In this document: one piece after another, positions 960 to 37,825 of the stretch
Layout of the letters: every line of letters begins with the position of its first letter
How positions within the stretch are numbered: the first letter of the stretch is position 1
Assembly (NCBI GenBank): GCA_028717685.1
Contig: JAQUNI010000001.1
Span: 335,451-399,450 of the forward strand
DNA from: Patescibacteria group bacterium
GTDB lineage: Bacteria; Patescibacteriota; JAQUNI01
Length of the DNA: 64,000 bases
Reading direction: 5' to 3'
Program-made: the position numbers and the translations under genes
The notes under the pieces: generated by a model
The model's database searches: none
The model's input: only the letters and a program-made list of their open reading frames with translations
Told to the model about the DNA's origin: nothing

Positions 960-1166
960 GAAAGCTTAAAACTTAAAAAGTAAAGCGTAAATAAAAATTT
1001 AAAGCTTGGTGATGAAAATTTTGTAACTTGTAACTTGAAACTTGTAACACAAGGGATGGAATACTTGAGTTACAGGTTATAAGTTGTAAGTTATAAGTTG
1101 TAAAAAATATGGTTTTACATTTTGCGCTGCTGTTTCGCATTTTTATTTTACTCTTTTACGCTTTCA

Positions 1167-1574
1167 TTACGATGTCTCTAGCGCCTTCTCAATATGAGAT
1201 AAACTGCCACGTTTCATATGGGCCTTGACTACCTCTCTTTTCTCCGCGCCTTCGGCAAACGAAACCTTGATCGTATTCTTAGCGGTTAACTTGCCTGTTT
1301 CGCGGCGCCAAATCCGGATCGGAGGCTTTAAATAGAAACCAAAAACAGCTAAAACAAAATAAATAAACGGCCGATCATTGACTTTTATAAACGCGAAAGC
1401 GGAAGTGATCGCGAGGGTCGGAATGGTTATGACAATAAAGAGAGATAAATCAAAGAAAAACCAATAAATCAATTCCACGGCGGCGGCGGCGAGAAAATAA
1501 AGAAACTGCTTAATGGTGAGGGGTCCCACCACCTTGTCTTCTATGTCAATAAATTGGGGAACAGTAGCTTGCAT
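1167..1574 (-). CDS. PrgI-like small membrane protein (type IV secretion / conjugation system component, VirB3-like).
   Basis: 135 aa with two adjacent hydrophobic helices (FLYFLAAAAVELIYWFFF, LSLFIVITIPTLAITSAFAFI) and a basic C-terminus. The architecture and size match the PrgI family, and it sits next to a VirB4-N-like gene. Confidence 0.5.
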   Translation of the reverse strand: MQATVPQFIDIEDKVVGPLTIKQFLYFLAAAAVELIYWFFFDLSLFIVITIPTLAITSAFAFIKVNDRPFIYFVLAVFGFYLKPPIRIWRRETGKLTAKNTIKVSFAEGAEKREVVKAHMKRGSLSHIEKALETS

Positions 1575-1611
1575 AAAAACAAATTAAAAATGAAAAATGA
1601 AAAATCACAAT

Positions 1612-3063
1612 TTAGTATTGAAATTTTCTGCTCGCGTCGGCAATAGCGTTGAATTCCTCTTCGGTCAAATAAGGCTCTCCTTGCATCATCCTCCTTTTGG
1701 CAATCTCCGTGATCGTCTTGCCTTGAGCAATGCTTTCGCCGCCGATCATAATATATAATTTATAAGGCCCCGAGCCTCGCCAAGCCTCTATACTCTGAAA
1801 TCGGGCAAGTTCGCTCTTACCCACCAAACTATTCACCTGCGCGACGAGACGACTTGACGCTTCGCTGGGCTGACGAATTTTAAAATTCTCCAAACCCAAA
1901 TTTTTAAGGTCGTTAACACTCTTGATTGCCTCAATGGCAAGCCCGGCATTTTGCTTTTCTCCCGCGGCAGAATGAGATTCTAATTTCCGCAAAACATCAG
2001 TAACGACCGTCTTCTTCCCTTCCGGCAGAGAAAACATGGGGGAAGGAACGTCACTCCCCCTGCTCGCCTCGCTAACGCTCTCGCCTCGCTGACGCTCTAG
2101 CGTAGCGGGTTGGCGTAGCGAGCCCGAGGGGGAGGGAGCGGCGCTCACCTCGCGTGAAGACTGTCCAAAAATCGGCGCGGGAGCTTCTATTCTAGAAATA
2201 TCTTTCTTGTCTTGCAAAGGAGCGGACTCTATCAGATGTTTGCTATCTAACGGGGTAAAAATTTTATCCACTGGAAAACCCTGCACATCGGGAGGAACAA
2301 CGGGGAATATAGGTGACTCCTCCCACGCCAAATTTTTGGCAGGAGAGGGCGGAGCTTCTTTTTCCTCTAGAACAGAGGACTTGGTCTCTTCTTCCCGGGC
2401 TCTAAAATCAACATCCTGCTGCGAATTATTCTTCTGGCTATTCTGATACTTGCTCAGAAAATCCGCTTGCCCTTCTTCGGGAAACTCTTCTTTCAAAAGT
2501 TGGGTGATTTGAGCCGCTTCCGCCTGTGAAAGTCCTGCCCCTCCCCGCTCCTCGGGCCGGGTTAGGGCGTCTTCGGTTTCTAATTCGTCCCGAATATCCT
2601 TAATATAAATAAGAATACTGCCTTCAAGACGCGATTTCTGCAAAGGAGACAATTTCAACTTTAAATCGCTCAAAACGCTATCCACAAAATCCCTGATCGC
2701 CCCCGCGCCCAATTTTAACAGGGTTGATTTTTCGGCGGCGGTCTTGGATTCTGGCAAGCCCTCTGGAGGGACGGGAACTTCGCGATCCAAGGCTTGTTTT
2801 TTTTGCTCTGAAGGAATATTGATTACTTTCTCTATAGCCCGGCTTAAATCAACACTTTCCTCAAGCGGCAGATTCAGGTTAATTCTTAGAACGCGCGGCA
2901 GATCAGAATTTTTAATCTCCCCGCTCGCGAGCTTCCCTAAAATTCTCGCTTGCAATCTTCTATCTTTTTCCGAGAGACGAAAAGCATCGCCTATCTTCGC
3001 GAGGCGCGAGGCTGTTTCACGGGAAGAGAGAAGGGTATTAAGATTTTGAGGGAAATTGGTCAT
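1612..3063 (-). CDS. Hypothetical protein (483 aa). Paralog of 3624..5018; carries an in-frame GC-rich repeat insertion.
   Basis: Long ORF. Its N-terminus (QNLNTLLSSRETA) resembles the N-terminus of the 464 aa neighbour (RDLNTLNSEEIT). The Pro/Ser/Gly-rich segment ...SAAPSPSGSLRQPATLERQRGESVSEASRGSDVPSP is encoded by the repeat at about 2040-2150. Confidence 0.6.
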   Translation of the reverse strand: MTNFPQNLNTLLSSRETASRLAKIGDAFRLSEKDRRLQARILGKLASGEIKNSDLPRVLRINLNLPLEESVDLSRAIEKVINIPSEQKKQALDREVPVPPEGLPESKTAAEKSTLLKLGAGAIRDFVDSVLSDLKLKLSPLQKSRLEGSILIYIKDIRDELETEDALTRPEERGGAGLSQAEAAQITQLLKEEFPEEGQADFLSKYQNSQKNNSQQDVDFRAREEETKSSVLEEKEAPPSPAKNLAWEESPIFPVVPPDVQGFPVDKIFTPLDSKHLIESAPLQDKKDISRIEAPAPIFGQSSREVSAAPSPSGSLRQPATLERQRGESVSEASRGSDVPSPMFSLPEGKKTVVTDVLRKLESHSAAGEKQNAGLAIEAIKSVNDLKNLGLENFKIRQPSEASSRLVAQVNSLVGKSELARFQSIEAWRGSGPYKLYIMIGGESIAQGKTITEIAKRRMMQGEPYLTEEEFNAIADASRKFQY

Positions 3064-3150
3064 TTTAGTTCAAAGTTCAAAGTCAAAAGCCAAACTGAAG
3101 ATTGAAAATGACAATTTTTAATTTTTAATTTTTAACTAATTCTTAATGTA

Positions 3151-3526
3151 TTAATTTTTATTGTTTTGTATTATGGAGATTATCTTAGAAAACATTTTAG
3201 CGTACCCTTGGACTTCTTGCCACAATTGATGGCACTCTTCTTTTACGCTCTCATCGGCTTGAGCAAGCATTCTTAGCCAGTGCATTTGTTTCTTTGGCTT
3301 CTTTCTTACAAATATGGATTTTATTCTTAAAATCCTTCCTTGAAGAAGCTCCGTTAGCTTCCATATAATTTGCCCCTATTGAGGTGCCTGAACGAATTAA
3401 TTGATTTATCAACGGCGAGGCAATGGGATTCTTGCAAGCTTTCTTTGATAAAATAATAATTTCTTCACCCAAACGCTCAAATTTCTCTTCTAAATCATAA
3501 TTAACATCATCTTTAGTTTTCTGCAT
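3151..3526 (-). pseudogene. Four-helix-bundle protein (23S rRNA intervening-sequence protein family), frameshifted.
   Basis: The 91 aa ORF 3251..3526 has the family core ...QLIRSGTSIGANYMEANGASSRKDFKNKIHICKKEAKET. The expected C-terminus HWLRMLAQADESVKEECHQLWQEVQGYAKMFSKIISIIQNNKN continues in another frame down to 3151, implying a 1-nt frameshift near 3280. Confidence 0.55.
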
Positions 3527-3623
3527 GCAATAATTCGTTAATTCAACAAAAATTAGTTAAAAATTAAGAAATAAAAATTAAAAATTGTCTTTAAACTTTG
3601 AATTTTGAACTTTTAACTGAATT

Positions 3624-5018
3624 TTATTCCGCCCAAAATGGGCTATTTACAATATAGCTTCTTACTTCCGGCGATAATTGGTTAAAGTTCTGACGGATAA
3701 TTTGCCGCAATCGCCCTTCTTCAACAGGATCTCCTTTTTGCGCCGCGGCTTCTAAAATAGAAATCGTAATTTCTGAATTTGAGGTATCCACTAACTTTTC
3801 GCTCTGAACAAAATTTTTGTTCAGCAATGGAGAGGAAAATCCATCCCCCTTTTGGAAAGGAGAGTTGGGGGCGGGAGTAACACTCCCCCTGCCCGAGGGG
3901 GAGATGGAGGGGGTGGGAGGTTCCGGCATTCTCTGTGATAATAAATCCGTAGGCTCATTTGGAACAGATGTTTGAGACGGCAATGGCTCTTCTCTTCCGG
4001 CAAATGCCGCGGGTCTTTTAATCTCCTCTGTTGTGGGCGGAGCAAATGACGCGGGCTGCTTTGAAACGGCTCCGGCGGTATAGGGAGAAGAGGCGGCACT
4101 CCCTCTGTCTTGAGGGGGGAGAAAGACACTCCCCCTGCTCGCCTCGCTAAAGCTCCGGCGTAGCGGGCCCGAGGGGGAGGCGGAGGGGGAGGGAGTCTCC
4201 GCGGCTAAAGGCGCCCTGTTTTGCGCTTGGGGAAATCTCGTTTCTCCGTTCGCGGGTCGAATATCCCGTAAATCCTGCGGACCTTGATAACCTTGAGGCG
4301 GTCGGTTCGCTCCTTCCGACGCAGTTTGAGCCAAGGCTTGACCCAATCTCACCTGCTTTCTTTCTTCTATACTCACTCCCTGTTCTTGCGTCATTTCCAT
4401 CTCCGCCATTACTCCCAAAGGCTGCAACGCATTATAAAGCTTTAAAAGCTTTGCCAAAATTATTTTATCCCCTTCTGCTAGCTTTTGAACCTCTGTGTTC
4501 TTATTTAAAAAATCCCTTTCCTCAAGCTCTAAAAGCTGCGGCCGACCCGGATAGCTGTGGATAAAGAGGGCGAGCCACTCGCCAATCGTTAAAGAACCTA
4601 TTTTTTGTCTGTTATCGCGCAAGGCTTGCACCAATTTTTTACAAAGCTCTTCCCGTGGTCCAGTCGGGTTGACCCAAAGTAAAGCTTCCAAACGACCCAA
4701 TACAATCTCCTCATCCAAAGGCAAAACCTCTTTAATCTCGCCTTGAAACAATTGAATAATCTCACTGTCCCTCTGCGCCGGCAAACTGACATAATTAACT
4801 AGAGTCGCCCATTTTTTTAGTTGACCTAAAATTTCCGGCTTCGCGCTAAGCTCTCTTCTTTGTAGGACTTCTTTAAACTCTCTGGACAATTTAAAAGCTT
4901 CCTTATCTTCGCAAAAATAAATAATTTCCCCGACCTGCCGGTTCACTTCCTGCAAAACCTCTGGCCGCGTTATCTCTTCTGAATTAAGAGTGTTTAAATC
5001 TCGCATAGATATTATCAT
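3624..5018 (-). CDS. Hypothetical protein (464 aa). Paralog of 1612..3063, with two in-frame GC-repeat insertions.
   Basis: Long ORF. The segments PSPSASPSGPLRRSFSEASRGSVFLPP and PTPSISPSGRGSVTPAP are encoded by GC hairpin repeats at about 4095-4200 and 3880-3925. Confidence 0.6.
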   Translation of the reverse strand: MIISMRDLNTLNSEEITRPEVLQEVNRQVGEIIYFCEDKEAFKLSREFKEVLQRRELSAKPEILGQLKKWATLVNYVSLPAQRDSEIIQLFQGEIKEVLPLDEEIVLGRLEALLWVNPTGPREELCKKLVQALRDNRQKIGSLTIGEWLALFIHSYPGRPQLLELEERDFLNKNTEVQKLAEGDKIILAKLLKLYNALQPLGVMAEMEMTQEQGVSIEERKQVRLGQALAQTASEGANRPPQGYQGPQDLRDIRPANGETRFPQAQNRAPLAAETPSPSASPSGPLRRSFSEASRGSVFLPPQDRGSAASSPYTAGAVSKQPASFAPPTTEEIKRPAAFAGREEPLPSQTSVPNEPTDLLSQRMPEPPTPSISPSGRGSVTPAPNSPFQKGDGFSSPLLNKNFVQSEKLVDTSNSEITISILEAAAQKGDPVEEGRLRQIIRQNFNQLSPEVRSYIVNSPFWAE

Positions 5019-5053
5019 TATTGTCTATTTCGTAATTAAAGATCATTTCCAAT

Positions 5054-8000
5054 TTAAATTCCGCCCCCCATATTCAGCCGATCTTCGTCCTGACGTAATG
5101 TCTCCGCTCTAGAACTCTCTCCTACTGCATCTCTATCTCTACCTCTACGATCACCAGCACCAGCTATTGATCCTCCCTCACCGCCTGTCTGGCCTACTTT
5201 ATCAAAAAGTTTCTTTAGAATTCTTCTCATATCCTGCGCCTTATCCCTTCTCACCTTGGCAGCCCCTTCCTTCCCCTTCTTTTCTAACCTTTCAGCTTCC
5301 TTCTCCATCTCATCAGTGATACCCAAAAGATCCTTCTGGTTCTCTATATATCTTAAGGATTCAATTAGGCGCGGCTGGGCCCAGCTGCCCAATCTATCTA
5401 CATCTTCATCGGTCAAAGGTTCAACCTGCCCCCTACTGCCAGGAGTAAGACCTAAATATTTAGCCCCAGGCGGCGCATTGGCATATTTTATCTGATCTTC
5501 TTTGGACATATCACTAATACTCATATCGCGGAAGAGGAGACCGGGGTGCCACCTTTTTTGATAAGTGCTTCTCTTTGCTTGTTCAGAGCTAATAATTCTT
5601 GTCCGATTTTGATTATAAGTATCCACGACTGTAGCGACCCCTTCGCGCAATTTCTCATCGGCGATAAGAAAGTTCCCTTTTTTGTCTTTTCTTTTTAAAA
5701 TCTCTTCTTTGGAGTAACCAAAATTGTCCAGCATTAAGTTAGACAGTTTTTCAAAAGAAGTATCCACTCCCTCGACTTTTAATTTTTCCGCCTTTTTGCG
5801 CAAATATTTTTGAAACACAGCCGTCTTCTCTAAAAAAGTTACCTGCCCTGTTGCATTTTCCCCTTCTGCTAATTCAATCTTCTGCAGATCTTCATCATCT
5901 TCAGCCGTGTTAAGAGAGCGATTATCAGCCTCATCAAACGTGGTGGAATAAGAGAATTGAGGATAAGTTTGCTTCATTGCTTCAGCAATATCATTCGCGA
6001 ACATCGAGGCACGATCCGAATCCCCGAAGAGCCTTCTTAAGACCGCCGTATCTGAACCCATCACCGCCTTTCCTCCGGAAAACTTCCGCGCGTACTCCGA
6101 ACCCTTCAAAAGATCGTTAATATCACCTCGAGATAAAATTACCTCCAAAAGCCCCTGGACTTCGGCGGTCAAAGCCTGATCTGAACCAAGCCAACCCTTG
6201 CCTTCCATCTCTTTCAATAACTCGTCCAAACGGGTATAAAGAGCTTCTGTTTGAACATCGCTTTCATTAAGAGAGCTTGCCACTTCTTTCACTGCCGCTC
6301 TCTCCGCGCCGCGAGCATAAAGCTTCTCCCGCTCATAACCCGGACCCTTTTTCTGAAAAAAAGCATGCCAGCCGGCAAGCCTCGGTTGCAGTTCTGTAAT
6401 CCGTGGACCATAAATTTCTTTCTCTCGCCGTTTGCGCCGTGCCTCTGTTACCGCCTTCCACACCTTAGGGCTAACCCATTTCAAATACTTCCCTGCTCTG
6501 CTTTCCATCGCCTTGCCCCAACCATACTTTCCTAAAGCCTTAGCTCCCGCCGCCGCGGGTTTACCCATTGTCAGCCATTCTGACCCTGTTTTCCATAATT
6601 TATTCGCGCCTTGCAGAATTCCGGAAGCGCCCATAACGCTCGCTTTGCGCGCCACATAAAGACCCGCCATCATAAAAGCCACAGCGAAAAGAAGCTTCAT
6701 AAAAACTTGGGGAGAAGCGCCTTGCGCCGGCAATCGCCTTAAAGCCTCGCCTTCTGACAATAAACTCTCTAATGTTCCGGCTTTAGATTTAAAATGAGCG
6801 TCTAAATCCGCGCTTAAAACAATCACCGATAAAGTAATGCAAAAAATCATCACCGGCGCGAAGAAAGCGGTGCGCAAAAAAGTATTCCAAAAGCCAGAGA
6901 CGATTTTCTTCTGCCCGACCGCCATCGCGAGGTAAATCAAAGGTGAAATCGCGGTCATTAAAAGCAGAACCACAATCCGGACAGCCAAAAGGAGCGCGGT
7001 CGCACCATAAACAATTACCGCCGACAGCATATAAAGAATCATTAAAATCTGGGCTCCCAAGACAGAGGCGAGAGTAGTAAAATCAGTGGAGCCGGCAAGC
7101 CTGTCCACGCCAAAAAGGCCTCCAAGACCCGCGGCTCCGAAAAGCGCCTTAATCGGAGCAATCTTATTCGGATTGAGATTCAAGAAAATATCCGACAAAA
7201 TTTGTGAGAAATCAACCGCCACGCCGCAAAGCACCTTGGAAAAATTGATTAAAACCACGCCCGCTAAAAAACCAGGCAGCATTTTCTTTAAACTGCGCTC
7301 CTGAATGCCCAAGACCGTGCAAAAGGCGATATAAAGCAGAACGACGATAAAGAACATATTGGAAAAATCGCGCAAGAACCGCCAGACTAAATCCACAATC
7401 CCAAAATCAATTTGGCTGAAATTAAGCACCCACTCCAAGAAGGCGAAAATAAGAAACAAAAGACCCTGCAAAACACCACAGACGACAAGAGCAATAATGC
7501 CAAAAACCACAGAGACCACCAGCCCAATGGAATTGTTAAAAATTTTCCACGCGACCTGGCTTACTAAACTTCCTGCATTGCAATCATATAAAGGTTGAAT
7601 ATTATTCTTAAAGTCATCAAGGTTATTCTGATATTCTGGGATTTGACCAATATAAAAATTTTCTCCTCTACCCGAATTTACATCCCGCTCCATAAAACAC
7701 GAAGCCGGATCAATAGTATCCCGTGGAGAAGCGCAGTAAGCCTTCTCTCCTATATTAATCTGATAACCTGCGGTTCCTACTGTATAGTTGATTGGTATAG
7801 TTACCACAAAAGCGGGAAGCTCGCGCTCTATTTTAGGAGTGCAGGGTTTTTTGGAATCCAAACAAACCTGGGGCAATATTTGCCCGCCTTTTTCATAGAC
7901 CCCCTTTCCCCCGCCGCAAGCATTGGCTATGGTTGCGCAGGTAAAAACAACAGCAGTTTGAGTACTGGAAACCGAAGAGGGAATCTCTGCACAAAATGCT

Positions 8001-8425
8001 GGCGCCTTACAACCCACTTTTCCTGAATTAAAAAGAAATTGATATGACTTCGCTTTGTCAGCGGCTGGAATTAGGTTGATATCAAGAAGAGAAGGAGAAA
8101 AAAGACTGAAGTTAAATTTTTTTTCTCCAGCATTTCCATAACCATTGCACTTCTCACAATCATCTGTACCTACTATACATAGGTTATTGTCTACGCTTGC
8201 ACAGTAATTTTCTTGTACCTGTGTAATACCACTAGTATAAATACTAGAAGCGCAGGCTTTATTTTGATTAGTCTCACATGCCGTCTCTCCCTTTGTCAGT
8301 GGATCGTTAGCACCATCACATGGCACCATTTCGGCCTGCGCTGTCCCAGATCTGCTAAACAATCCCAAGCCCGCGAGGCAGAGAAGAATCAATATTTTCC
8401 AAAAATTTTTGGTTTTAATTTGCAT
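5054..8425 (-). CDS. VirB6/TrbL-like polytopic membrane protein with a Cys-rich extracellular N-domain and a long charged cytoplasmic C-domain (about 1124 aa counted from Met29).
   Basis: Signal peptide MQIKTKNFWKILILLCLAGLGLFSRSGTAQA. About 330 aa with many Cys, then at least six hydrophobic helices over about 300 aa (VirB6/TrbL-like core), then a 500 aa Lys/Glu/Arg-rich tail. The track ORF extends to 8509, but the signal-peptide Met at 8425 is the likelier start. Confidence 0.5.
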   Translation of the reverse strand: MQIKTKNFWKILILLCLAGLGLFSRSGTAQAEMVPCDGANDPLTKGETACETNQNKACASSIYTSGITQVQENYCASVDNNLCIVGTDDCEKCNGYGNAGEKKFNFSLFSPSLLDINLIPAADKAKSYQFLFNSGKVGCKAPAFCAEIPSSVSSTQTAVVFTCATIANACGGGKGVYEKGGQILPQVCLDSKKPCTPKIERELPAFVVTIPINYTVGTAGYQINIGEKAYCASPRDTIDPASCFMERDVNSGRGENFYIGQIPEYQNNLDDFKNNIQPLYDCNAGSLVSQVAWKIFNNSIGLVVSVVFGIIALVVCGVLQGLLFLIFAFLEWVLNFSQIDFGIVDLVWRFLRDFSNMFFIVVLLYIAFCTVLGIQERSLKKMLPGFLAGVVLINFSKVLCGVAVDFSQILSDIFLNLNPNKIAPIKALFGAAGLGGLFGVDRLAGSTDFTTLASVLGAQILMILYMLSAVIVYGATALLLAVRIVVLLLMTAISPLIYLAMAVGQKKIVSGFWNTFLRTAFFAPVMIFCITLSVIVLSADLDAHFKSKAGTLESLLSEGEALRRLPAQGASPQVFMKLLFAVAFMMAGLYVARKASVMGASGILQGANKLWKTGSEWLTMGKPAAAGAKALGKYGWGKAMESRAGKYLKWVSPKVWKAVTEARRKRREKEIYGPRITELQPRLAGWHAFFQKKGPGYEREKLYARGAERAAVKEVASSLNESDVQTEALYTRLDELLKEMEGKGWLGSDQALTAEVQGLLEVILSRGDINDLLKGSEYARKFSGGKAVMGSDTAVLRRLFGDSDRASMFANDIAEAMKQTYPQFSYSTTFDEADNRSLNTAEDDEDLQKIELAEGENATGQVTFLEKTAVFQKYLRKKAEKLKVEGVDTSFEKLSNLMLDNFGYSKEEILKRKDKKGNFLIADEKLREGVATVVDTYNQNRTRIISSEQAKRSTYQKRWHPGLLFRDMSISDMSKEDQIKYANAPPGAKYLGLTPGSRGQVEPLTDEDVDRLGSWAQPRLIESLRYIENQKDLLGITDEMEKEAERLEKKGKEGAAKVRRDKAQDMRRILKKLFDKVGQTGGEGGSIAGAGDRRGRDRDAVGESSRAETLRQDEDRLNMGGGI

Positions 8426-8689
8426 TTTGGCAATCCCCAAATGTGATTTAAGATCGTTGGCTCCCCAGTACACTCTTAGGGCGGAACTATGGAGCCAACA
8501 AGTTAACAATAACCCAAAATTCCCCTCCTAGTCGTTGAATTGAAAACTAAAAGGATTTTTCTTTTCCTTTTTATTTTGGATAATTCTTCTGGCTCTATAA
8601 TTTATTTTGCGCTTTTCGCTTTTAACTACGGCTTTTTATACTATACCACAAAAAAACAATCTCGTAAAAACGAGATTGTTAGTTATCCA

Positions 8690-8975
8690 CATAAAATTTT
8701 GAATCCGAGCGTTGGCTCCACACAGACTTAGACCCCTCCCACCCTCCCCTTGGTAAGGGGAGGTGAAATGCGCTCCCCCTGCTTTCCAAGGGGGGAGAAA
8801 GATTCTCACTCCCCCTGCCAGGGGGGAGGCGGAGGGGGAGGAAGCTTCAGAACCCCACCTAACCTCCCCTTTGAAAGGGGAGGTTAATGCACACTCCCCC
8901 TGCCCGAGGGGGAGATGCCTGCCCGCCATCGCTTCGCTTCAGGCGAGGCGGGGGGGAGGGAGTAAAAAGACGCGA
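8690..8975. repeat. Tandem cluster of GC-rich hairpin repeats (CCTCCCCTT-N-AAGGGGAGG, CTCCCCCTGCCCGAGGGGGAG, GCCCGCCATCGC..GCGAGGCGGG).
   Basis: Several perfect or near-perfect short palindromes sit in an otherwise AT-rich context. The same units recur at more than 12 other sites in the window. Confidence 0.8.
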
Positions 8976-9017
8976 AAATAAAAAACCCAGTATATACTCT
9001 TGAAGTATTATACTGGG
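8976..9017 (-). terminator. Rho-independent terminator of the FGE-domain lipoprotein gene.
   Basis: On the minus strand the sequence reads CCCAGTATAATACTTCAAGAGTATATACTGGG followed by TTTTTTATTTT. The identical module is found at 18218..18261. Confidence 0.6.
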
Positions 9018-9028
9018 ATTGAGAAATT

Positions 9029-9880
9029 TCATTTGGTTGCGTCCATGGCGCAACGAAAGCCAAGAGTGATGTCCGTGAGAATGGGAGCGAGACCAAAGCG
9101 CATAGCTACGCGAAGGCGATGCTGGTCAGAAGAGCTATATTGCCACTCGCCACCGCGCAACACAGTCCATATTCCAGTCTCTGGTCCCGTTGGATTTGAT
9201 TCTGGCGATCTTAAATAATAATCAGAATCATACCAATCAGTACACCACTCGTAGGCATTTCCTGCCATATCATACAAACCATACCCATTCGGAGCAAAGC
9301 TACCAACAGGGAATGTCAATTGCGGTTTACCAAGGCCACTATATACATATACATCATCATAAGTCAGAGTATCTCCCCACGAATAACGTTTGCCGACAAG
9401 ACCACCCCGAGCCGCCTTTTCCCATTCAGCTTCTGTTGGGAGTCGCTTACCAGCCCACTCCGCATAAGCCTTAGCATCATACCATGATACTCCGACTACT
9501 GGATGATCTGGCCCATTGAGAACTGGGTAATTCCAATATTCTGGTGTTGTTTTGTGTCCAGTTGCATCCATGAACTTTTTATATTGTGCATTAGTTACCT
9601 CATAAACATCCATATAAAAGGCGTCAAGATAAACTGTATGCACTGGTCTTTCATCGCTATCGCCTTCATTAAATGAATCGCCCATCTGAAATTCTCCCGC
9701 AGGGATGAGAGCCATCGACGCACCGTCTGAACTGAATATCTCATTTGTTCTCACCTGAAGATTAGAATCTTGAGATTCCAGTGGATTCTGACTGTCTTTA
9801 CCACAACCAACCAACATAACCGCAAGAACCGTAAAAGCCAAAATCACAAAGAAATACTTATAATACAACATCTTTATCAC
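9029..9880 (-). CDS. Lipoprotein with a formylglycine-generating enzyme (FGE-sulfatase / SUMF1-like) domain, 283 aa.
   Basis: Signal peptide plus lipobox (LVGCG). FGE-sulfatase hallmarks are present: YMDVYEVTNAQYKKFMDATGH, RLPTEAEWEKAARGG, GLYDMAGNAYEWCTDWY, and the C-terminal RGG..RCA motif. Confidence 0.8.
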   Translation of the reverse strand: MIKMLYYKYFFVILAFTVLAVMLVGCGKDSQNPLESQDSNLQVRTNEIFSSDGASMALIPAGEFQMGDSFNEGDSDERPVHTVYLDAFYMDVYEVTNAQYKKFMDATGHKTTPEYWNYPVLNGPDHPVVGVSWYDAKAYAEWAGKRLPTEAEWEKAARGGLVGKRYSWGDTLTYDDVYVYSGLGKPQLTFPVGSFAPNGYGLYDMAGNAYEWCTDWYDSDYYLRSPESNPTGPETGIWTVLRGGEWQYSSSDQHRLRVAMRFGLAPILTDITLGFRCAMDATK

Positions 9881-10124
9881 CCTTTTATCCTTCCTACATT
9901 TTGTAGTAATTAACGATAAATTGTCAAAGAAACGCCTCCCTAGCAGAAAATACTAGGTAAAATCGGTAAAACCCTGAATCTTTCTTTAGTCTTCATTATA
10001 GCACCTTTCTTATGTTTTGTCAATGTTTTACTCCTGAATCAAGGAATACCTGATTTCTTCTAAAACAAGCAGAAAAGCAAGCTGACTTAATATTACCATT
10101 TTGAACTTATATTGTCCACTTCCC

Positions 10125-10241: not shown

Positions 10242-13200
10242 TTAATCCCCAAGCTTCGCCCTCACATAATTTAAGACTCTTTTAATCCTCTGCCCTAATG
10301 TTAAAAACCTTTGAGTACTAGTGCCGAGAGTCTTTGATAACTCTATAGGTACCGATTCAGCCCAATTATTAGATGTATCCTGATCATAATGATCGTCTGT
10401 TTCTATTAAAGAGACCGAGACTTTAGCTTTTTTATAATATTCTGGAATAATGGGACCAAAGCAATAGCCATTGAAATCAATATTTTTGGCTGCCCCTGGC
10501 AGAAGCTTACCCGTAATTTGTTTCTCAAGCTCAGTTATGTGCAACATCTGACCTGGCACCACCCCACCATCTTCATCAAGTATGGTCACGTAAGCATCGG
10601 CATCTTCTACTGTATTTGCCAAATTTAATTCCTCCGATCCAGCATTAACAAGCTCTACACTTCCGTCTATGCAATAATTCCCTCCCCTTTGAGTCTTACG
10701 AGCTTGCACGGATTCAACAACTAAATCTGGTTCTTTAACTTCCGCGAGACCAGAACATTTTCTATGATCATTATTATTATCGTCATTCCATACGCCCGGC
10801 GTCCCGTTAGACTTTATTTCAGTCACATGTACTTCAAATTGGAAGAATCCCCACTTTTTCATGCCTAAATTAATTGGATAATTATCCTCCTTTTCTAATG
10901 GTGGACTGCCCTCCGCCAGATTGTACGAAGGGGCGCTCCAATGATAAGCTTCGGCACCGCCACCATAACATCCTTGGGGATCAGTCTGACCAGTTGGTTC
11001 CTTATCGAAGTAATACACAGTATAACTATAACTTAAATTATTAACATCTTCGGTGCCTTCATTAATAATTTGAAAATAACCATGTAAGATTCTAGCACCG
11101 CTCTGGCTATCTACACTGGCATAGCTTGCACCCTGCTTTATCCATTTTTGATATTGAATTGCTATATTTGTAATAGAAGGCTTTGGTTGGGGCGGTAGCG
11201 GAGCTGTGCATGCTGTGCCATCATTCTTTAATAATTGCGCGCCCAATTTCACAGGCAAGTTCGCGGCAATGATAAATTCTGTACCCGGTTTGTTTGGAGA
11301 ATTATCCGCTTCCTTGCCTTTTAAGGTAAAGGTCAGAGTGTCGTTGTTATTATAAGGATGACCGGCTGTGTCATTCATCGGGATGGTAACATAAAAAAAT
11401 AATTGTTTTGACTCCTTGGCATAAGAAACTATTTCGGGGGTAGTCAAATTGATGCCTGTTTTTGTTCCCGGACCGTCAGTTAAAGTAAAGGTGCTTTTCA
11501 CATCTCTAGATGCTGTATTCATCAAATTGACGGTAAGTAACAAATATTCGCCCGGATTAGCTCTCCAATCACCTTCTGTGCTCGCGACACAGCTTGCGTG
11601 CAGAGAGCTGCATTTATCCGCCGAGGGGCAAGTATATTGGTATTGGAAAGGCGAAGGAGACGGCGTGCCGGTGGGGGGTTTATACCAGTCGCCTTTATCA
11701 CCCACCATAATCTTGTAATCTGTGGCATTATAAAAACTATTCATACACATTGAGAGATAACGTGCTGGCTCGTATGTCGCTTGGGGGAAACTATTGCATT
11801 GGTCTTTGTTGTATAAAGTCAAATAAGCCGTATCCTGACCAGCTTCGCAGAAATAATCAGGCAGACCTGCTTTATTATTCCTTTCATTGAATTCTGGAAT
11901 CACACCCTCTTTTTCGGTGAAATTAGCATCCACCTTTTCATCCGCAAAAACCGCAAAGCGCATATTTTTAGCCTCTCTGACTTCAAAATTAGGTATAATA
12001 AACTCTGCAATCCCTTTGCTGCCCTTTTTCTCATCGTAAAAATCAAACTCATCGGCGAGAGTCCAAGGGATTTCAGTAACTCGTTGATATTTTTTCTTGA
12101 TGCAGTCAATATAATTTTTGTAAGAATCATCTGCCGCATTAGCGCCTGGTTGGTTGGTCTCGTCCGGATTCTCAAAATACTTGGCATAAGTTTCCAGTGC
12201 GCCGCTTGAGGCCGGTGATTTTGATTCACAGTAACATTCGTCAACCGACAGAATAGGATCTGTTGCGGGTGTGCCGCAATAATTGCCCCGATTCCAGCTC
12301 CAGTCCCAAGTCATATGATGTGTCTCTGTTGTCGGTTTGCCGTAGCAAACATAAACGCCCATGGGGATAACCGTGCCCTTTGGAATGGCGCGATCCCCTT
12401 GATTTTTAATTTTGAATTTTAAATCTAATTTTGATCCCTGAACCACGCCAGTAGTGCCAGCAGGAGATGTATTTATTTGAAAGTCTAACCCTGCCGGCAC
12501 CAAATCCGGCTTTTTCAAAATATTGCCATCATCCTCGCTATTGTCGGCAGAGTTTTCGCAACCCCACACATCAGCCGGAAAATCAGTATACCCATCTTTA
12601 TCATTATCCACGCCGTCGCTGCAGCGCGGAAATACCGGCACGGTCAAATCCTGATGGAAGATGATGCGCCCATATTGGTCCCGAAGGTATAAGGGAACCT
12701 TAGCGTTGCCGTCAGATTTAGCATCATCTTTCACGCGCAGGTTGAAATCCTTGTTTAATATTAGAGTTTGCCCCGAGACAATCATGCCAATCTTAATTGA
12801 ACTTTTATTGTCTCCCGAATCATTCTTGCCGCTTCCGACATATTGAAAAACTGGAGAATTTTCTAAATCAATAAAAAGATCCAAACCGCTAAGACTGCCC
12901 GAGTGCAAGGGACGGATATCTTTTAAAGTAACCCCAATTTCAATTTCCTCGCCGGGATTCGCCACTCCTGTGTCATCGCCGTCCGGATGGTCGCCATCGC
13001 CGCGCAAATCAGCGGTCTTGAGTCCGTCACTTATTTTATATTCCGCGGTGACCGGTGAAGCCGACACATTCGCAATCTGGACAATGCGGTTATTGAGCTT
13101 ATTTAAATCCTTATTTTTCGCATCTTTGTCAGAATCAAAAACCATCATCAAAGCGTGGGTGCCGGGCTCAACAGCGGTCCACGTAACTGTGGCAATATCA

Positions 13201-16121
13201 CAAGCCGGCTTGTTGAACCAAGGCTCAGAAGAGCAGTTGATGGGCATTTCTATTGTGTCTTCGTAGACTTTTTTTGCTTTCACACTTGCGATTTCACTTC
13301 CTGCTTCATTAACAAGATCGCCAGTATAAAAATTAGCTTTCCCAAAGAAACCTTCCACGCCCCCTTCCACTCCTGCCAAATCATACAAGGTTACATGGAC
13401 CTTATCCGCGGATTTGTCGAGACCATCATTTCTATAGCGCATTATAATCGGCACTTCCTGACCTTCATAAAATATAGGCGTAGGCGCGAATTGCCGGTCA
13501 AAAACATTCATATTCTGATACGGCGGCGGGTCTTGCGGCAGTTCCAGCATATAATTTTGGGCAAGGTAACCCCTGCCGCAGGGAGCGGGGTTAGAGCTAT
13601 CTGAAGTGAAATATGTTTCTTGATGGCAATTTCTCGCCGCGGTGGTCGGATCAGGTTTATATTTCTCCCCGCTCCAAAGTTGTTTTTCTGTCACTTCGGG
13701 TAACTCATATCCTTGAAAAAATTCTGAAGCGCCATTGACTTCTTTTTTGAAAACAATATTAATATAAACGCTTTTTGTTATTTCGCTCCAAATCTGGTTC
13801 CTTTCGGCAAGACTTAAATCCGTGCTTAAATCCCAGCGGGCGATATGGACTCCTGCCGGCATATTATTAAAAACCAATTTGCGGTAAAGTTTAATATTTT
13901 CATTGGCTGTGTCAGTCGGCCTAAGATAGATTTCCACCGTAACATTGGATTTTTCAGTCAAGCGATAAGGAAATTCTAAAAAATCATAGCGTCCATCCGT
14001 GGATAAATTTATTGTTTCAGTCTTGATTTGATTTTCCTCGGGTTTTAAATTACAAAAATTCAAAAGCTCCAAAACCTTACGAATACCTGATTTAAAAGCA
14101 TAAAAGGTTGCCAAATCGCCAAAAGTGTCTGTAACACCACTTTCAGAAGCCCAATTGCCAACTGCGTCTGTCACTTCTTCAACCACTCCTCCTAATCCTA
14201 CCGTATCCCCCGCCCTAATAAGCAGCCATTTTGCTGCCCTTCCCAAAAGAGACACGCCTTTCTTTCCTGCTTCTGCGACAGATTTAGTTAAGAGAGGCTC
14301 AATTAACTCCTTGTAAACTACAAACTGGGCTAAAGTAGCAACAGAAAGCAAACTTTCTTTCTTATTAACAGAACTTGCTTGAGCTTGGAATTCACCTTGA
14401 TTATTTTTGATCAAAAGAGACGTATAACCATTGGGGTCAGTCTTTGCCGCTTCCTCTCGGGTTTTATTTAAAGCCTCCAAAGATTCTAAATCTAACGCGC
14501 TGACTTGTTTTCTTAACTCTTCCGGCCAAGGATTGCCAACTGTTTCATCTTTATTGGGAACCATTATATAATTTTGCGTGTCAACCCCTTTTCCATCTAT
14601 TGTCAATCGTTCTCCTTTTTTGTCTCCTACATCAAAAATCCAACAAATCAATTTCTTTCCAAGATCTGAAACCCAGCCCACTATCTCACCCAAAAAATTA
14701 GTGTCCACCTGTTTTAAGGCGGCGATTAAACACTGCCCGGCGCTTGGTCTTTGAGGTTCGCCCATTTTCCCCATCGTAGTCCCCAAGTCCGGCTCTATCA
14801 CTTCAAAGCCGACAGGGCATCCAGCGAGAGCCCCTGTAGTCGCTCTTTTAACTTTAAAATTGACATTGGTAAGGTAAGTCTTGCCTAAATCATAGATAAT
14901 GCGGGAGACGCCGGAGAGATCAGTGGCGTCGCCTGCGATTTTCAGTTTGCTCTCAATTAAATCATTGACCATCACCTTCACTTTCTGACCTGGCCTTTTA
15001 ATTAAACCGGTCCAGCCCGAAGCCAAGGGATCAGAAATCGCCCTGGAAGTAAAGGCAATGCTCGCGGGATACACCTCTACAGGCTCTTGCCAAACATTGG
15101 GCTTCACTAAAGTTTCAATCACGTCAATCTTATATTGAATATCACAAAACAAAGCAAAGGGAAAATCGGCGTCCCAGCTCCAAATATCATAACGGTAGAA
15201 ACCATTAGATAATGGATAAACATAATAAGTGCCTTTGCTGGCTAAATTATATCCAGAAATTGCCCCACTTGTTGCCGGGCTCTGAATTGGGGTGTATCCC
15301 CAGCCCTTGAGTTTACTATCAAGCTCGCTCTTTTTAAGATTTTCCCCCCTCTTCAGAAAATAAGATTCTATCGCCTCCGGCATATCGGTTACCTTGCGGC
15401 CGTCGTTATGACCCTCGGAAATTATATAATCCCGATTTCCCTCCGCTTCAGACGACGCCGCCACATCCATTGTCGTGCCCACGGCGCCCCAGAGCAATCC
15501 TTGAGGCGTAGACCAAATTCTTGCCATATTCTTGCTCCAATAATCGCGATCCGAAATAGAAGGGGGGCGGTCCTCTCCGCTCATCTCTTTGGAAACCTTA
15601 TCCAACTCTTTCAAAACAGAATGGCTTAATTTATTGCCGGTCTCTTTAAGTCCGCGGTAGGCTAAATTCTCCAAGCCCAAGAAAGCGTTTAAGAGGGGCG
15701 CGTCTATCTTAGCGTCTCCCACTTCACTAGCGACCCAATTATGGAATTTAGCAAAGCCGAAATCCAAATAAGGCACAAAGACTTGGCGGTTGTAATCCTG
15801 CACTAAATATTCGTCTTCAAAGCTCTTGACCACTTGAGAATAAAAGCGGTCTACCACGGTATTAAGGGAATCCTTGATAATTAATTTCAAAAAATCTCCA
15901 TAATTAAAAGAAGCGAGCCCCGAGAAAAAAGTTTTCATCGGGTCTAAAATCAAGCCTTGCAGCACTCCTTTAGATTGCGTGTCCCCTGTTGCCGCCGTCT
16001 CTGCAGCACGGGCTGGCAACGCCCCTCCCAAGGGGCTCCCCAAAAAACCAATCAGCAAAAGAAGCGCAATTCCCTTGCGATGTTTGTAAAGCAAATGATT
16101 GTGGAAGAAATTTTTGTCCAT
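10242..16121 (-). CDS. Giant secreted/surface protein (1959 aa), function unknown.
   Basis: Uninterrupted 5.9 kb ORF with an N-terminal signal peptide (LLLLIGFLGSPLGGALPARAAE). No catalytic motifs were recognised. Many Asp/Gly/Cys-rich segments. Confidence 0.7.
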   Translation of the reverse strand: MDKNFFHNHLLYKHRKGIALLLLIGFLGSPLGGALPARAAETAATGDTQSKGVLQGLILDPMKTFFSGLASFNYGDFLKLIIKDSLNTVVDRFYSQVVKSFEDEYLVQDYNRQVFVPYLDFGFAKFHNWVASEVGDAKIDAPLLNAFLGLENLAYRGLKETGNKLSHSVLKELDKVSKEMSGEDRPPSISDRDYWSKNMARIWSTPQGLLWGAVGTTMDVAASSEAEGNRDYIISEGHNDGRKVTDMPEAIESYFLKRGENLKKSELDSKLKGWGYTPIQSPATSGAISGYNLASKGTYYVYPLSNGFYRYDIWSWDADFPFALFCDIQYKIDVIETLVKPNVWQEPVEVYPASIAFTSRAISDPLASGWTGLIKRPGQKVKVMVNDLIESKLKIAGDATDLSGVSRIIYDLGKTYLTNVNFKVKRATTGALAGCPVGFEVIEPDLGTTMGKMGEPQRPSAGQCLIAALKQVDTNFLGEIVGWVSDLGKKLICWIFDVGDKKGERLTIDGKGVDTQNYIMVPNKDETVGNPWPEELRKQVSALDLESLEALNKTREEAAKTDPNGYTSLLIKNNQGEFQAQASSVNKKESLLSVATLAQFVVYKELIEPLLTKSVAEAGKKGVSLLGRAAKWLLIRAGDTVGLGGVVEEVTDAVGNWASESGVTDTFGDLATFYAFKSGIRKVLELLNFCNLKPEENQIKTETINLSTDGRYDFLEFPYRLTEKSNVTVEIYLRPTDTANENIKLYRKLVFNNMPAGVHIARWDLSTDLSLAERNQIWSEITKSVYINIVFKKEVNGASEFFQGYELPEVTEKQLWSGEKYKPDPTTAARNCHQETYFTSDSSNPAPCGRGYLAQNYMLELPQDPPPYQNMNVFDRQFAPTPIFYEGQEVPIIMRYRNDGLDKSADKVHVTLYDLAGVEGGVEGFFGKANFYTGDLVNEAGSEIASVKAKKVYEDTIEMPINCSSEPWFNKPACDIATVTWTAVEPGTHALMMVFDSDKDAKNKDLNKLNNRIVQIANVSASPVTAEYKISDGLKTADLRGDGDHPDGDDTGVANPGEEIEIGVTLKDIRPLHSGSLSGLDLFIDLENSPVFQYVGSGKNDSGDNKSSIKIGMIVSGQTLILNKDFNLRVKDDAKSDGNAKVPLYLRDQYGRIIFHQDLTVPVFPRCSDGVDNDKDGYTDFPADVWGCENSADNSEDDGNILKKPDLVPAGLDFQINTSPAGTTGVVQGSKLDLKFKIKNQGDRAIPKGTVIPMGVYVCYGKPTTETHHMTWDWSWNRGNYCGTPATDPILSVDECYCESKSPASSGALETYAKYFENPDETNQPGANAADDSYKNYIDCIKKKYQRVTEIPWTLADEFDFYDEKKGSKGIAEFIIPNFEVREAKNMRFAVFADEKVDANFTEKEGVIPEFNERNNKAGLPDYFCEAGQDTAYLTLYNKDQCNSFPQATYEPARYLSMCMNSFYNATDYKIMVGDKGDWYKPPTGTPSPSPFQYQYTCPSADKCSSLHASCVASTEGDWRANPGEYLLLTVNLMNTASRDVKSTFTLTDGPGTKTGINLTTPEIVSYAKESKQLFFYVTIPMNDTAGHPYNNNDTLTFTLKGKEADNSPNKPGTEFIIAANLPVKLGAQLLKNDGTACTAPLPPQPKPSITNIAIQYQKWIKQGASYASVDSQSGARILHGYFQIINEGTEDVNNLSYSYTVYYFDKEPTGQTDPQGCYGGGAEAYHWSAPSYNLAEGSPPLEKEDNYPINLGMKKWGFFQFEVHVTEIKSNGTPGVWNDDNNNDHRKCSGLAEVKEPDLVVESVQARKTQRGGNYCIDGSVELVNAGSEELNLANTVEDADAYVTILDEDGGVVPGQMLHITELEKQITGKLLPGAAKNIDFNGYCFGPIIPEYYKKAKVSVSLIETDDHYDQDTSNNWAESVPIELSKTLGTSTQRFLTLGQRIKRVLNYVRAKLGD

Positions 16122-16254: not shown

Positions 16255-17751
16255 TTATTCTTTGTTATCAGCGCTATATTTCTTAGATAATTCATCTAAA
16301 TTCTTCTGCATTAATACTTCTAAACTGTCAAAAGACTTCAATTTGCCGATAATAGCATCCGCCTGTCCGGTATCGCTGCTGCGCAAAGAATTTTCATCCG
16401 TCACCTCCTCATAGATGCGGATAATGGTTAAAAAGATTTTATGGATTTCTTTAGTATCCCGCGGCACGGCGATTTTCAGCAGCTCCGCATCAATATTCTT
16501 GAGCGCGTTATAGGTTTGGTTAATGACAGTATAATCATTCTGGGCAATCTGATTTTTTAAAGTAGCGGCGTCAATACTTTGTAAACCGGAAAAATTTTTT
16601 TCAAAAATACCATTGACATCTTGGAAATATTTTTGGATGTCTTCTGCTTTACTGGTATCAAAAATCTTGAGTTCGCTATCAGAGATTTCCGCGGGCGCGG
16701 AAACAGGAATCGCGTTAAACATATCCTGCATTGAACTTTGCATAGAGTCGGAACTTAAAATCTTTTTCTGCATTTCCAGTTTTCCCGAGACATCCACATT
16801 GCCGGACTGCGCCTTAGCAATATCTTCCTCAGACAAACCCAGCTTTTGCAGGGCGCTGTAATCATTGCCGGTTAAATTGCTAAAGTCCGTTTGCCCGCCT
16901 TGGTCCAGCGCGCATTTGCCGCCGGAAGCGCCGGCATCAACCGAACCAGCAGCGCACGAAGCGCTGGTCGTGGACGCGGAGGCAACAGCGGGAGCGGCAC
17001 CAGAGGCGGAGGGGGTGGGAGCAAAACTCACCGCCGGATTTTTCTTCACGGCTGGAGTCAAAGGATCATAGCCATTTTTTACTTCCACGCCGTCAGGATA
17101 ACCATCGCCATCCGTATCCTTCTGGAAAGGATTAGTAGCGAGTTTCTCTTCAATCTCGTCCGAGAGTCCGTCTTGGTCAGAATCAATGCTCAAAGGCAAA
17201 GAATTCGCGGTAACATTGTTATTGCCTGAAGTATTAAAAACACGGCTGTCAGTTTTGGCGGCGATTTGAGGCACGATTGCCCCTCCCTCTTCTTGCGCGG
17301 TCTCTGTCAAAGCCGCGGCTTGCACTGTCGAAATGGAATTTCCCTTTCCGCTTTCGCTCGCTAATGTTTCGCTCATCCTGTTTAAGGAAGCCTGCGTCTC
17401 TTCAAGATTAATTTTGCGGTCTAGAAAAATAAAACCCCCAATAGCGCCGGCGATTATGATTAAAATCGCGACAGTGACTACTTGGAGGGTTGACCTTAAA
17501 ACTGTTTTGGTTTTTTGATTTTGAAGAAAATTAAAACCCCGCACCACTTTCGGTTCAGGGCTTGTAGGATTTGGTTCTTTAATACTCGCGTCTTCAGAAT
17601 AACCGCGATACCAATTTTCTAAATAAGAAGGCAGTCCTCCCGGTAAAGCCGTTTCCGGCGCATAGCTTCCCGCGTTACTAAAATTGGGGTTCGGATTATT
17701 TAAAACCTCAGAATGCCCGGGATAACCCGAGAAATCAAAATGATTTTTCAT
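16255..17751 (-). CDS. Membrane-anchored protein with calcium-binding (thrombospondin type-3-like) Asp-rich repeats, 498 aa.
   Basis: Single transmembrane helix (VVTVAILIIIAGAIGGFIFL) followed by DSDQDGLSDEIE...DTDGDGYPDGVE repeats. Confidence 0.6.
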   Translation of the reverse strand: MKNHFDFSGYPGHSEVLNNPNPNFSNAGSYAPETALPGGLPSYLENWYRGYSEDASIKEPNPTSPEPKVVRGFNFLQNQKTKTVLRSTLQVVTVAILIIIAGAIGGFIFLDRKINLEETQASLNRMSETLASESGKGNSISTVQAAALTETAQEEGGAIVPQIAAKTDSRVFNTSGNNNVTANSLPLSIDSDQDGLSDEIEEKLATNPFQKDTDGDGYPDGVEVKNGYDPLTPAVKKNPAVSFAPTPSASGAAPAVASASTTSASCAAGSVDAGASGGKCALDQGGQTDFSNLTGNDYSALQKLGLSEEDIAKAQSGNVDVSGKLEMQKKILSSDSMQSSMQDMFNAIPVSAPAEISDSELKIFDTSKAEDIQKYFQDVNGIFEKNFSGLQSIDAATLKNQIAQNDYTVINQTYNALKNIDAELLKIAVPRDTKEIHKIFLTIIRIYEEVTDENSLRSSDTGQADAIIGKLKSFDSLEVLMQKNLDELSKKYSADNKE

Positions 17752-18215: not shown

Positions 18216-18217
18216 GC

Positions 18218-18261: not shown

Positions 18262-18272
18262 AATAAGAAAAA

Positions 18273-37791: not shown

Positions 37792-37825
<34 letters not shown>

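Follow-up and report, generated by a model that had tools for sequence, protein, structure and literature searches.

The surface-lipoprotein-type protein TvpA of Treponema denticola (PDB 2Y3C) has the fold of the formylglycine-generating enzymes (FGEs), shows no FGE activity, and has been proposed to attach to surfaces (PMC5758913). In TvpA and Mtd, both with FGE-type C-type lectin folds, the diversified ligand-binding region is C-terminal and the last strand is constant (PMC5006420); the target genes of the diversity-generating retroelements (DGRs) can be non-adjacent to the reverse transcriptase (RT) or more than 100 kb away from it (PMC5758913). Where FGE-like ("FGS") domains occur in fusions, for instance with TIR or caspase modules, they have likewise been interpreted as binding elements (PMC7159879). 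The Vsp and Vpma lipoproteins of Mycoplasma bovis and M. agalactiae form families in which the 5' untranslated region (UTR) and signal peptide are highly conserved and the remainder is unrelated between members (PMC2268961). Here, we analyze two FGE-like lipoprotein genes, FGE_A and FGE_B, in a 64-kb stretch of DNA from an ultra-small Patescibacteria group bacterium (Patescibacteria/Doudnabacteria; contig JAQUNI010000001.1; the whole stretch is hereafter denoted the window). By analogy, their closest counterparts appear to be TvpA, for a putative binding mechanism and the site of variation, and Vsp/Vpma, for a conserved 5' end joined to divergent bodies. The two genes are probably cassettes for lipid-anchored, catalytically dead, variable binding proteins of the FGE/C-type lectin fold that recombine through their conserved ends, a reading derived from sequence analysis.

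Each FGE gene is a self-contained monocistronic cassette with its own sigma-70 promoter and a strong intrinsic terminator. All cassette features lie on the minus strand of the window:

8964..10027, minus strand: cassette A, whole (promoter, leader, lipoprotein gene, and terminator), delimited by similarity to cassette B
9995..10023, minus strand: promoter A, TTGACA, 17-nt spacer, and TATAAT with TG extension (12/12 match)
9872..9994, minus strand: leader A, about 120 nt, with the box CCTAGTATTTTCTGCTAGGGAGG and the Shine-Dalgarno sequence AAGGGTGA (alignments)
9029..9871, minus strand: FGE_A, 280-aa lipoprotein with signal peptide 1-22, Cys23, and FGE-type domain 54-278 (Pfam, PDB alignment, AlphaFold2 [AF2], and Foldseek)
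9062..9142, minus strand: two hypervariable loops of FGE_A, residues 244-252 and 257-270 (column entropy, 90 homologues)
8964..9061, minus strand: conserved 3' box A, GFRCAMDATK codons, stop, spacer, hairpin (8986-9017), and U-run (8975-8985)
18208..19951, minus strand: cassette B, whole, delimited by similarity to cassette A
19919..19947, minus strand: promoter B, TTGACA, 17-nt spacer, TATAAT, and TG (12/12 match), within the last 11 codons of the Ham1 gene
18273..19781, minus strand: FGE_B, 502-aa lipoprotein with Cys19, N-terminal domain (about 35-175), linker, and FGE-type domain (about 215-500)
18208..18302, minus strand: conserved 3' box B, GFRCAMDAK codons, stop, hairpin (18230-18261), and U-run (18219-18229)

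The likeness of cassette A to cassette B runs from AACATTGACA (10027) to past the T-run of the terminator (8964), with a divergent interior. The duplicated 5' flanks (9913-10027 versus 19837-19951; 83-86% identity, E 5e-29 by BLAST) belong to a repeat that begins 3 bases upstream of the promoter and continues through the leader with its Shine-Dalgarno sequence into the signal peptide and about 40 codons. Promoters A and B are the only two 12/12 sigma-70 matches between positions 8500 and 20600. The 3' repeat comprises 73 nt at 93% identity (8964-9036 versus 18208-18280), extended by BLAST to 95-98 nt at about 90% identity (E 1e-27 to 6e-33), and its coding share is confined to the last ~10 codons (GFRCAMDA..). 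Within this repeat, the 32-nt hairpin CCCAGTATAATACTTCAAGAGTATATACTGGG, followed by TTTTTTATTTT, is the same in both copies. It has a 13-14 bp stem with one bulged A, then U6AU4, with a folding energy of -15.7 to -17.5 kcal/mol (z -4.1 to -4.9); such a stable hairpin with an immediate U-run at the 3' end of a gene is a rho-independent terminator. A simple terminator scan missed it because of the bulge and the low GC content, and direct folding was used instead. A search of viral contigs for the hairpin pattern found none. The cassette interiors of A and B share only about 65-72% nucleotide identity and 53% protein identity. The preliminary description of this locus, made from the sequence alone, had reported two paralogs with near-identical 3' ends and a duplicated 3' terminator module; the module is indeed duplicated, and near-identity holds for the ends and not for the bodies. 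The duplication of the 5' flanks had escaped that description. The terminator module makes up no more than the 3' half of a cassette that spans promoter to terminator, with conserved ends (5' AACATTGACAAA...GCTAGGGAGG; 3' TTYCGTTGYGYCATGGACGC plus hairpin) and a replaced middle.

Open reading frames (ORFs) are present on the minus strand at 9029..9880, with a GTG start, and at 18273..19814; the ATG starts at 9871 and 19781 are likelier than the upstream starts. Read from ATG, FGE_A is identical to the NCBI-annotated protein P0001 and FGE_B to P0122; an exact-protein look-up of FGE_A gave a match from the ATG start and none from the GTG start. Two Logan contigs were 100% identical to the window. 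Inspection of the N-termini showed the lipoprotein signals MLYYKYFFVILAFTVLAVMLVG and MLRLKFSVILFLAVLLVG, each followed by the lipobox cysteine, with a charged n-region, a hydrophobic stretch, and the lipobox L-V-G-C expected of signal peptidase II substrates; the same signal is found in all intact genes of the cassette family with this 5' end. FGE_A and FGE_B matched PF03781 (model length 255) at E 1.6e-69 (positions 3-254) and E 2.1e-60 (positions 23-254), respectively, and the closest PDB sequences are true FGEs (E 3e-58, 36-42% identity). The AF2 model of FGE_A (pLDDT 83.9) showed structural similarity to FGEs in a Foldseek search (TM score 0.72-0.74; 0.74 to 2q17), with further matches to pFGE, PvdO, PorK, and TvpA. 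The FGE-type domain of FGE_B carries two insertions. Its AF2 model, built from 7 sequences, had a pLDDT of 44 and was not usable, and the N-terminal domain is described here only as beta-rich; a profile search of the genome contigs with the alignment of this domain found no further contig. Both products have the FGE-type C-type lectin fold, and the report of two LVGC-lipobox lipoproteins with a complete FGE-type domain held, PF03781 being matched nearly end to end. Close homologues of this domain are frequently fused to TIR, caspase, DnaJ, dockerin, PEGA, or kinase domains.

Variation in FGE_A is concentrated in the two loops, where column entropy among the 90 homologues reaches 3.3-3.8 bits, compared with mostly less than 1 bit in the scaffold. 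Residues 244-252 correspond to the former CxxxxC loop of FGE, and residues 257-270 sit between LRVAxR and GFRC; the loops align to CHDSYC of Streptomyces FGE. This arrangement resembles TvpA (E 7e-21, TM score 0.62), likewise of the surface lipoprotein type and devoid of FGE activity, in which a constant scaffold carries variation in C-terminal loops ahead of a constant last strand.

The active site of FGEs contains two cysteines (C-x4-C after RGGS) that bind Cu(I), consistent with the titles of PDB entries 6MUJ and 6S07. In the HMMER alignment with Streptomyces FGE (...RGGSYLCHDSYCNRYR...), FGE_A has Tyr and Gln at both Cys columns, and FGE_B keeps the first Cys, with Pro at the second column and a loop shorter by 3 residues. 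The Cys pair was found in none of the 6 aligned Doudnabacteria relatives, no C-x4-C was seen by eye in the C-terminal sequences of other cassette copies, and RGGSxxCxxxxC was absent from all 235 closest homologue clusters retrieved for A and B. No candidate substrate was recognized either: the C/SxPxR motif does not occur in the 1959-aa giant secreted protein that lies between the two cassettes (~0.24 occurrences expected by chance), in the TSP3 protein, or in the 1151-aa membrane protein of the locus; the Sulfatase family is not represented among the 36 scanned ORFs of at least 150 aa in the window, and no sulfatase signature was found in its six frames. With the Cys pair gone and no target motif or sulfatase nearby, FGE_A and FGE_B are therefore predicted to be incapable of acting as formylglycine-generating enzymes, and we reject their interpretation as maturation enzymes.

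That interpretation was one of two roles proposed in the preliminary description, which suggested either modification or maturation of the giant protein or a non-enzymatic binding role. Its observation that no sulfatase gene is present was confirmed by both the family scan and the signature search. The checks it proposed, on the catalytic cysteines and on C/SxPxR motifs in the giant proteins, gave results contrary to an enzymatic role, and the sequence features described here favor binding. Of the two findings it named as adverse to its proposal, catalytic loss in both copies was observed, and a lack of conserved co-localization was not (see below).

Compared with FGEs (human SUMF1; Streptomyces coelicolor 2Q17 and 6MUJ; Thermomonospora curvata 6S07), which are the best matches and have equal domain boundaries, the proteins described here differ in the missing Cys pair, the hypervariability of its loop, the predicted lipid anchor, the absence of ~30 FGE residues between two HMMER segments, and the lack of a sulfatase or CxPxR substrate nearby. 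pFGE/SUMF2 (1Y4J) and PvdO (5HHA) also possess the FGE fold without the catalytic cysteines; unlike FGE_A and FGE_B, they are soluble proteins of the endoplasmic reticulum or the periplasm encoded by single conserved genes, and their similarity is below that of true FGEs.

For analysis of cassette evolution, one close relative was available, a Candidatus Doudnabacteria metagenome-assembled genome (MAG) ~92% identical to the window, which includes contig JBAZQX010000021.1 and is represented here by contigs L007 and L011 from the same sample; L011 was found by scanning JGI metagenomes for the hairpin pattern. L007 encodes, in order, HhH-GPD, Ham1, an FGE-like protein (425 aa), the TSP3 protein, the giant, and an IS481 insertion sequence within which the contig ends. 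L011 starts with the other IS481 end, followed by GTAA-AACATTGACAAA (the cassette promoter), a gene for a 284-aa FGE-like lipoprotein, a coiled-coil gene, a pseudogene FGE copy and, further on, orthologues of the gene for the 1151-aa protein and of those downstream of it. Joined through IS481, the two contigs give the order Ham1, FGE, TSP3, giant, FGE, type IV secretion system (T4SS), so that an FGE-like lipoprotein gene stands on each side of the giant in the relative as well, in agreement with the co-localization anticipated in the preliminary description. The assembly was split into L007 and L011 because IS481 interrupts it. In the A-position cassette, 5 bp separate the -35 hexamer from the element upstream (L007 11434-12459, L011 14126-14255), which shows an apparent GTAA target duplication. 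The third copy in the relative (L011 10490-11352, minus strand; L011_A2) is a pseudogene, with TAG at codon 3 and one frameshift, that retains the lipobox, the full 3' box, and the hairpin and could be a silent donor or the result of plain decay. The cassette family in Doudnabacteria comprises two copies in the window and at least three in the relative (one of them this pseudogene), where the layout is the same, with different alleles and swapped leader types.

The genes neighboring the cassettes are 91-93% identical in nucleotide sequence between the two genomes, with synonymous divergence (dS) of 0.15-0.27. By comparison, FGE_B and its positional counterpart in the relative have diverged to dS 1.0 and a nonsynonymous divergence (dN) of 0.31, and dS between FGE_A and FGE_B is saturated, so the gene bodies are not recent duplicates. 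The 5' end, from the promoter to about codon 40, and the 3' end are conserved, and the nearest relatives of the individual segments are discordant. The 3' UTRs track position (window copy A versus L011_A1, 95%; window copy B versus L007_B', 93%). The proximal leader and signal peptide do not: those of window copy B are nearest to L011_A1 (88% and 83%), L013, and L010 (signal peptide 92%), and those of window copy A are nearest to L007_B'. The alignments locate the 5' switch point to the leader box GCTAGGGAGG. The body of window copy A is placed with 100% bootstrap support among non-cassette homologues in a neighbor-joining tree and is up to 70% identical to these, compared with 59-64% to the cassette copies. 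Two short contigs, L013 and L014, carry mosaics whose segments are nearest to different copies; in L014, the Ham1 gene is 91% identical to that of L007 and the adjoining FGE gene only 74%.

A further copy occurs in an unrelated context. In contig L010, a stretch of ~980 bp (2111-3094), reaching from the proximal leader as far as the terminator, shares 88% identity with L011_A1 and lies between alr/pyrE and rsmE. The tetranucleotide composition of its flanks correlates with Doudnabacteria sequences at 0.66-0.76, compared with 0.95-0.98 among the Doudnabacteria sequences themselves. The L010 cassette may reflect transfer between organisms or a chimeric assembly. In this contig, a small antitoxin-like ORF precedes the cassette in place of the consensus promoter. 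In L013, the hairpin is kept through compensatory changes in the upper stem, which fits selection for terminator structure; conservation also extends to non-functional spacer bases, both those that separate the stop codon from the hairpin and those past the U-run. A leader insert of ~110 nt (GGAATTCAGGC...GGGTAAATTCCCAAATAGTCTGGAATTTCCGCC), ~81% conserved and without an Rfam match, was detected at three loci (L007 1640-1760, L013 ~100-215, and L016 ~290-400) and is absent from both window copies.

Taken together, these observations suggest the following scenario. The mature FGE_A and FGE_B proteins would be lipid-anchored on the outer face of the cell membrane and would act as variable ligand-binding surface proteins. 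Homologous recombination via the end boxes would move their alleles among loci and strains, and possibly among organisms, without involvement of a DGR.

The arrangement is similar to that of Vsp and Vpma in that multigene lipoproteins of small-genome, host-dependent bacteria share the 5' UTR and signal peptide. Unlike the mycoplasmal proteins, which are repeat-rich and switch by Xer-type inversion onto a single promoter, each copy here has its own promoter and terminator, a conserved 3' end, and a globular FGE-fold domain. No recombinase was seen next to the cassettes, with just an IS481 transposase nearby in the relative, and inversion switching of the Mycoplasma type was rejected in view of the separate promoter of each window copy and the lack of a recombinase beside the cassettes. 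Integron attC cassettes were rejected on the basis of the own promoters, the absence of a GTTRRRY core on inspection, and the absence of an integrase family in the scans of the window ORFs. A riboswitch or other structured leader was rejected as well: leader A folds no better than shuffled sequences (z 0.13), and the leader and terminator had no Rfam match at the gathering threshold or at E<=1.

Several other explanations have to be weighed. We find it barely credible that FGE_A and FGE_B are active FGE-like oxidases modifying Cys or Ser of the giant secreted protein or the TSP3 protein. The affinity to true FGEs among solved structures, the single active-site Cys retained in FGE_B, and the conserved adjacency to the giant would be compatible with such a role; the clade-wide absence of the Cys pair and the lack of C/SxPxR in the candidate substrates and of a sulfatase argue against it, as does the loop that would have to hold the active site, in which the protein varies most. 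DGRs are common in the candidate phyla radiation (CPR), and the 3' box could in principle be an initiation of mutagenic homing sequence (IMH), with the hairpin as a cruciform that guides mutagenic retrohoming from a distant template repeat. The FGE-type C-type lectin fold is a main class of DGR targets, which can be far from the RT (PMC5758913), the variation is located where the variable region of TvpA is, and, in a possible parallel to FGE-type DGR proteins, a constant 3' end with an inverted repeat behind it recurs in several paralogous copies. Nevertheless, we consider this explanation very improbable. No second copy or template-like repeat of either 3' coding end was found in the 64-kb window, and no RVT family was detected among the 36 window ORFs or on L003, L004, L007, and L011. 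A, B, and B' have variable stretches of unequal length that cannot be aligned and therefore have no single template source; the differences within the close pair L011_A1 and L010 are, by eye, mixed substitutions that are not adenine-specific. Unlike in TvpA, whole bodies and leaders are exchanged, and the divergence is gene-wide, synonymous sites included. Although a constant 3' box with an inverted repeat exists, the repeat is AT-rich with a U-run and fits an intrinsic terminator, whereas the IMH of DGRs is followed by a GC-rich inverted repeat.

A simpler possibility is that these are ordinary paralogues of an ancient duplication that diverged normally, without exchange, the ends remaining alike through purifying selection. 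This is unlikely, although it deserves consideration: GFRC is nearly invariant across the family, the signal peptide and Shine-Dalgarno sequence are functional elements, and the compensatory maintenance of the hairpin argues for selection on structure. Purifying selection would not account for the conservation of non-functional spacer bases around the hairpin and U-run, for positional counterparts at dS ~1 in genomes otherwise separated by dS 0.15-0.27, for leader and signal-peptide types swapped between loci while the 3' UTRs track position, or for the same cassette in the unrelated context of L010. More improbable still, by analogy with PorK/GldK, the products would be structural lipoproteins of the T4SS machine or of the assembly of the giant. 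PorK/GldK and GldJ, of type IX secretion and gliding, are non-enzymatic FGE-fold lipoproteins encoded near a secretion apparatus; GldK/PorK is the best NCBIfam match (TIGR03525; E 4e-36 to 6e-39) and PorK a Foldseek match (TM score 0.62-0.68), and cassette A is directly upstream of the T4SS cluster both here and in the relative. The scores of 125.4 and 134.4 bits are nonetheless far under the equivalog cut-off of 350, the secretion system of this locus is a monoderm-type T4SS, with no type IX system, and a structural component should show the conservation of its partners (91-93% nucleotide identity), yet these hypervariable genes have been replaced (dS >=1). Moreover, one copy is a pseudogene, and the L010 copy has no T4SS gene near it. 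Judged by the defining features that were tested, FGE_A and FGE_B fall outside the FGE, PorK/GldK, and DGR-target families.

Exchangeable cassettes for variable binding proteins remain the explanation that we favor, and some observations weigh against it. Long contigs are available from a single related genome, the other copies being on contigs of ~2 kb. The neighbor-joining tree was built simply, from Kimura distances with a midpoint root, and the body of copy A stands apart by a modest margin of identity (70% versus 59-64%). The L010 contig could be chimeric or belong to another Patescibacteria lineage rather than to a different organism, and the conserved ends could be due in part to selection on expression and export signals rather than to recombination. 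The searches for RT and sulfatase genes span the 64-kb window, and a distant DGR or a sulfatase elsewhere in the 722-kb genome is possible. FGE_B retains one active-site Cys, and the FGE-fold proteins PvdO, ToxD, and CalU17 participate in chemistry without the Cys pair. Finally, because each FGE gene is its own transcription unit, any functional coupling to the giant and the T4SS is suggested by conserved adjacency only.

The surrounding genes lie on the minus strand in the order Ham1, FGE_B, TSP3 protein, giant, FGE_A, 1151-aa protein, and further genes:

19909..20466, minus strand: Ham1/ITPase (ORF and family match)
16255..17751, minus strand: 498-aa membrane protein carrying a TSP3 repeat (bacterial, calcium-binding type), 93% nucleotide identity to the relative
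10242..16121, minus strand: 1959-aa secreted giant, no Pfam family
1..8509, minus strand: Patescibacteria-type T4SS cluster, directly downstream of cassette A
5054..8509, minus strand: polytopic membrane protein of 1151 aa whose ectodomain is rich in Cys and whose gene occupies the VirB6 position, no family match
between the 1151-aa protein and PrgI/VirB3, minus strand: two proteins without an assigned family
1167..1574, minus strand: PrgI/VirB3 (PF12666; 32.9 bits, cut-off 27)
207..959, minus strand: TrsD-like/VirB4-N-like protein (TrsD and VirB4-N matches)
before 83, at the window edge, minus strand: start of VirB4 (VirB4 is seen in the syntenic L011)

These coordinates place the FGE genes on either side of the giant and the TSP3 (calcium-binding-repeat) membrane protein, as had been described. 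The TSP3 protein gene has its own promoter-like site (17896-17924). In the window, the Ham1 gene exceeds that of the relative by 11 codons, and its reading frame continues across both hexamers (-35 and -10) of the FGE_B promoter (19909-19951); Ham1 of L007 ends at TAA just ahead of the -35 hexamer, and the start of cassette A (AGTAAAACATTGACAAA) retains the ancestral context of the Ham1 stop codon. The giant has a single homologue cluster among 5.8 billion, 79% identical, from a Candidatus Doudnabacteria MAG. Its C-terminal ~350 codons (~1600-1959; 10242-11300) have a dS of 1.1-1.4 relative to this homologous gene in the relative, compared with 0.07-0.32 for the rest, a pattern indicating that this part, like the FGE genes, has apparently been replaced by recombination. 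TrsD, PrgI/VirB3, VirB6, and VirB4 make up the T4SS gene set of Patescibacteria; in one cultured strain, T4SS components are essential for epibiotic growth, and no adhesin was identified (PMC12102498, a 2025 survey). The supplementary tables that accompany this survey carry no mention of PF03781.

Tandem pairs of short Cys-less FGE-like lipoproteins recur on unrelated metagenomic contigs (L003 5751-7480, L004 4030-5987, and L015 8-2336). They are members of a large family whose routine annotation is "formylglycine-generating enzyme."

Beyond the locus, the window contains a 16S rRNA gene (37040-39080, minus strand) of 2041 nt, compared with a model of 1533 positions, with ~500 nt of inserted sequence; insertions in 16S rRNA are often seen in CPR bacteria. 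A group I intron (27892-28141, minus strand) is a complete match to RF00028 (88 bits) and lies outside any ARAGORN tRNA. Two kinds of intergenic repeats are present. GC-rich repeats of CTCCCCCTGCCCGAGGGGGAG-type palindromes flank cassette A on both sides and also follow the giant gene of the relative; a spurious 97-aa ORF (8636..8929) is built of them. AT-rich periodic repeats of the AAATTAAAAATGAAAAATG type occur in both orientations in most intergenic regions and at many gene boundaries. Their positions are as follows:

CTCCCCCTGCCCGAGGGGGAG-type repeats: 2037-2114, 3866-4201, 8760-8962, 10151-10238, 33750-33829, 54846-54884, 56949-56983, 58365-58465, 60691-60732
AAATTAAAAATGAAAAATG-type repeats, examples: 81-208, 1572-1631, 3083-3175, 3528-3611, 21276-21452, 36568-36839, 48846-49002, 59508-59741, 62928-63040

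For genome annotation, the results call for caution, as a clade of hundreds of clusters without the catalytic cysteines should not be labeled "formylglycine-generating enzyme." If the favored reading is correct, the FGE-type fold, a known scaffold of retroelement-driven hypervariation, can be diversified by plain cassette recombination as well. The cassettes keep their place around a hypervariable giant, immediately upstream of the T4SS genes, which points to a possible role in contact with a host or partner. We tentatively propose, as a possibility that is still rather doubtful, that Doudnabacteria and perhaps other Patescibacteria possess DGR-independent exchangeable cassettes whose products, together with the giant, would supply the host-recognition or adhesin component so far missing from the T4SS. 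Patescibacteria attach to other microbes, and how they recognize their hosts is largely unknown; two variable lectin-fold lipoproteins and a giant secreted protein encoded beside a T4SS would be concrete candidates for host contact.

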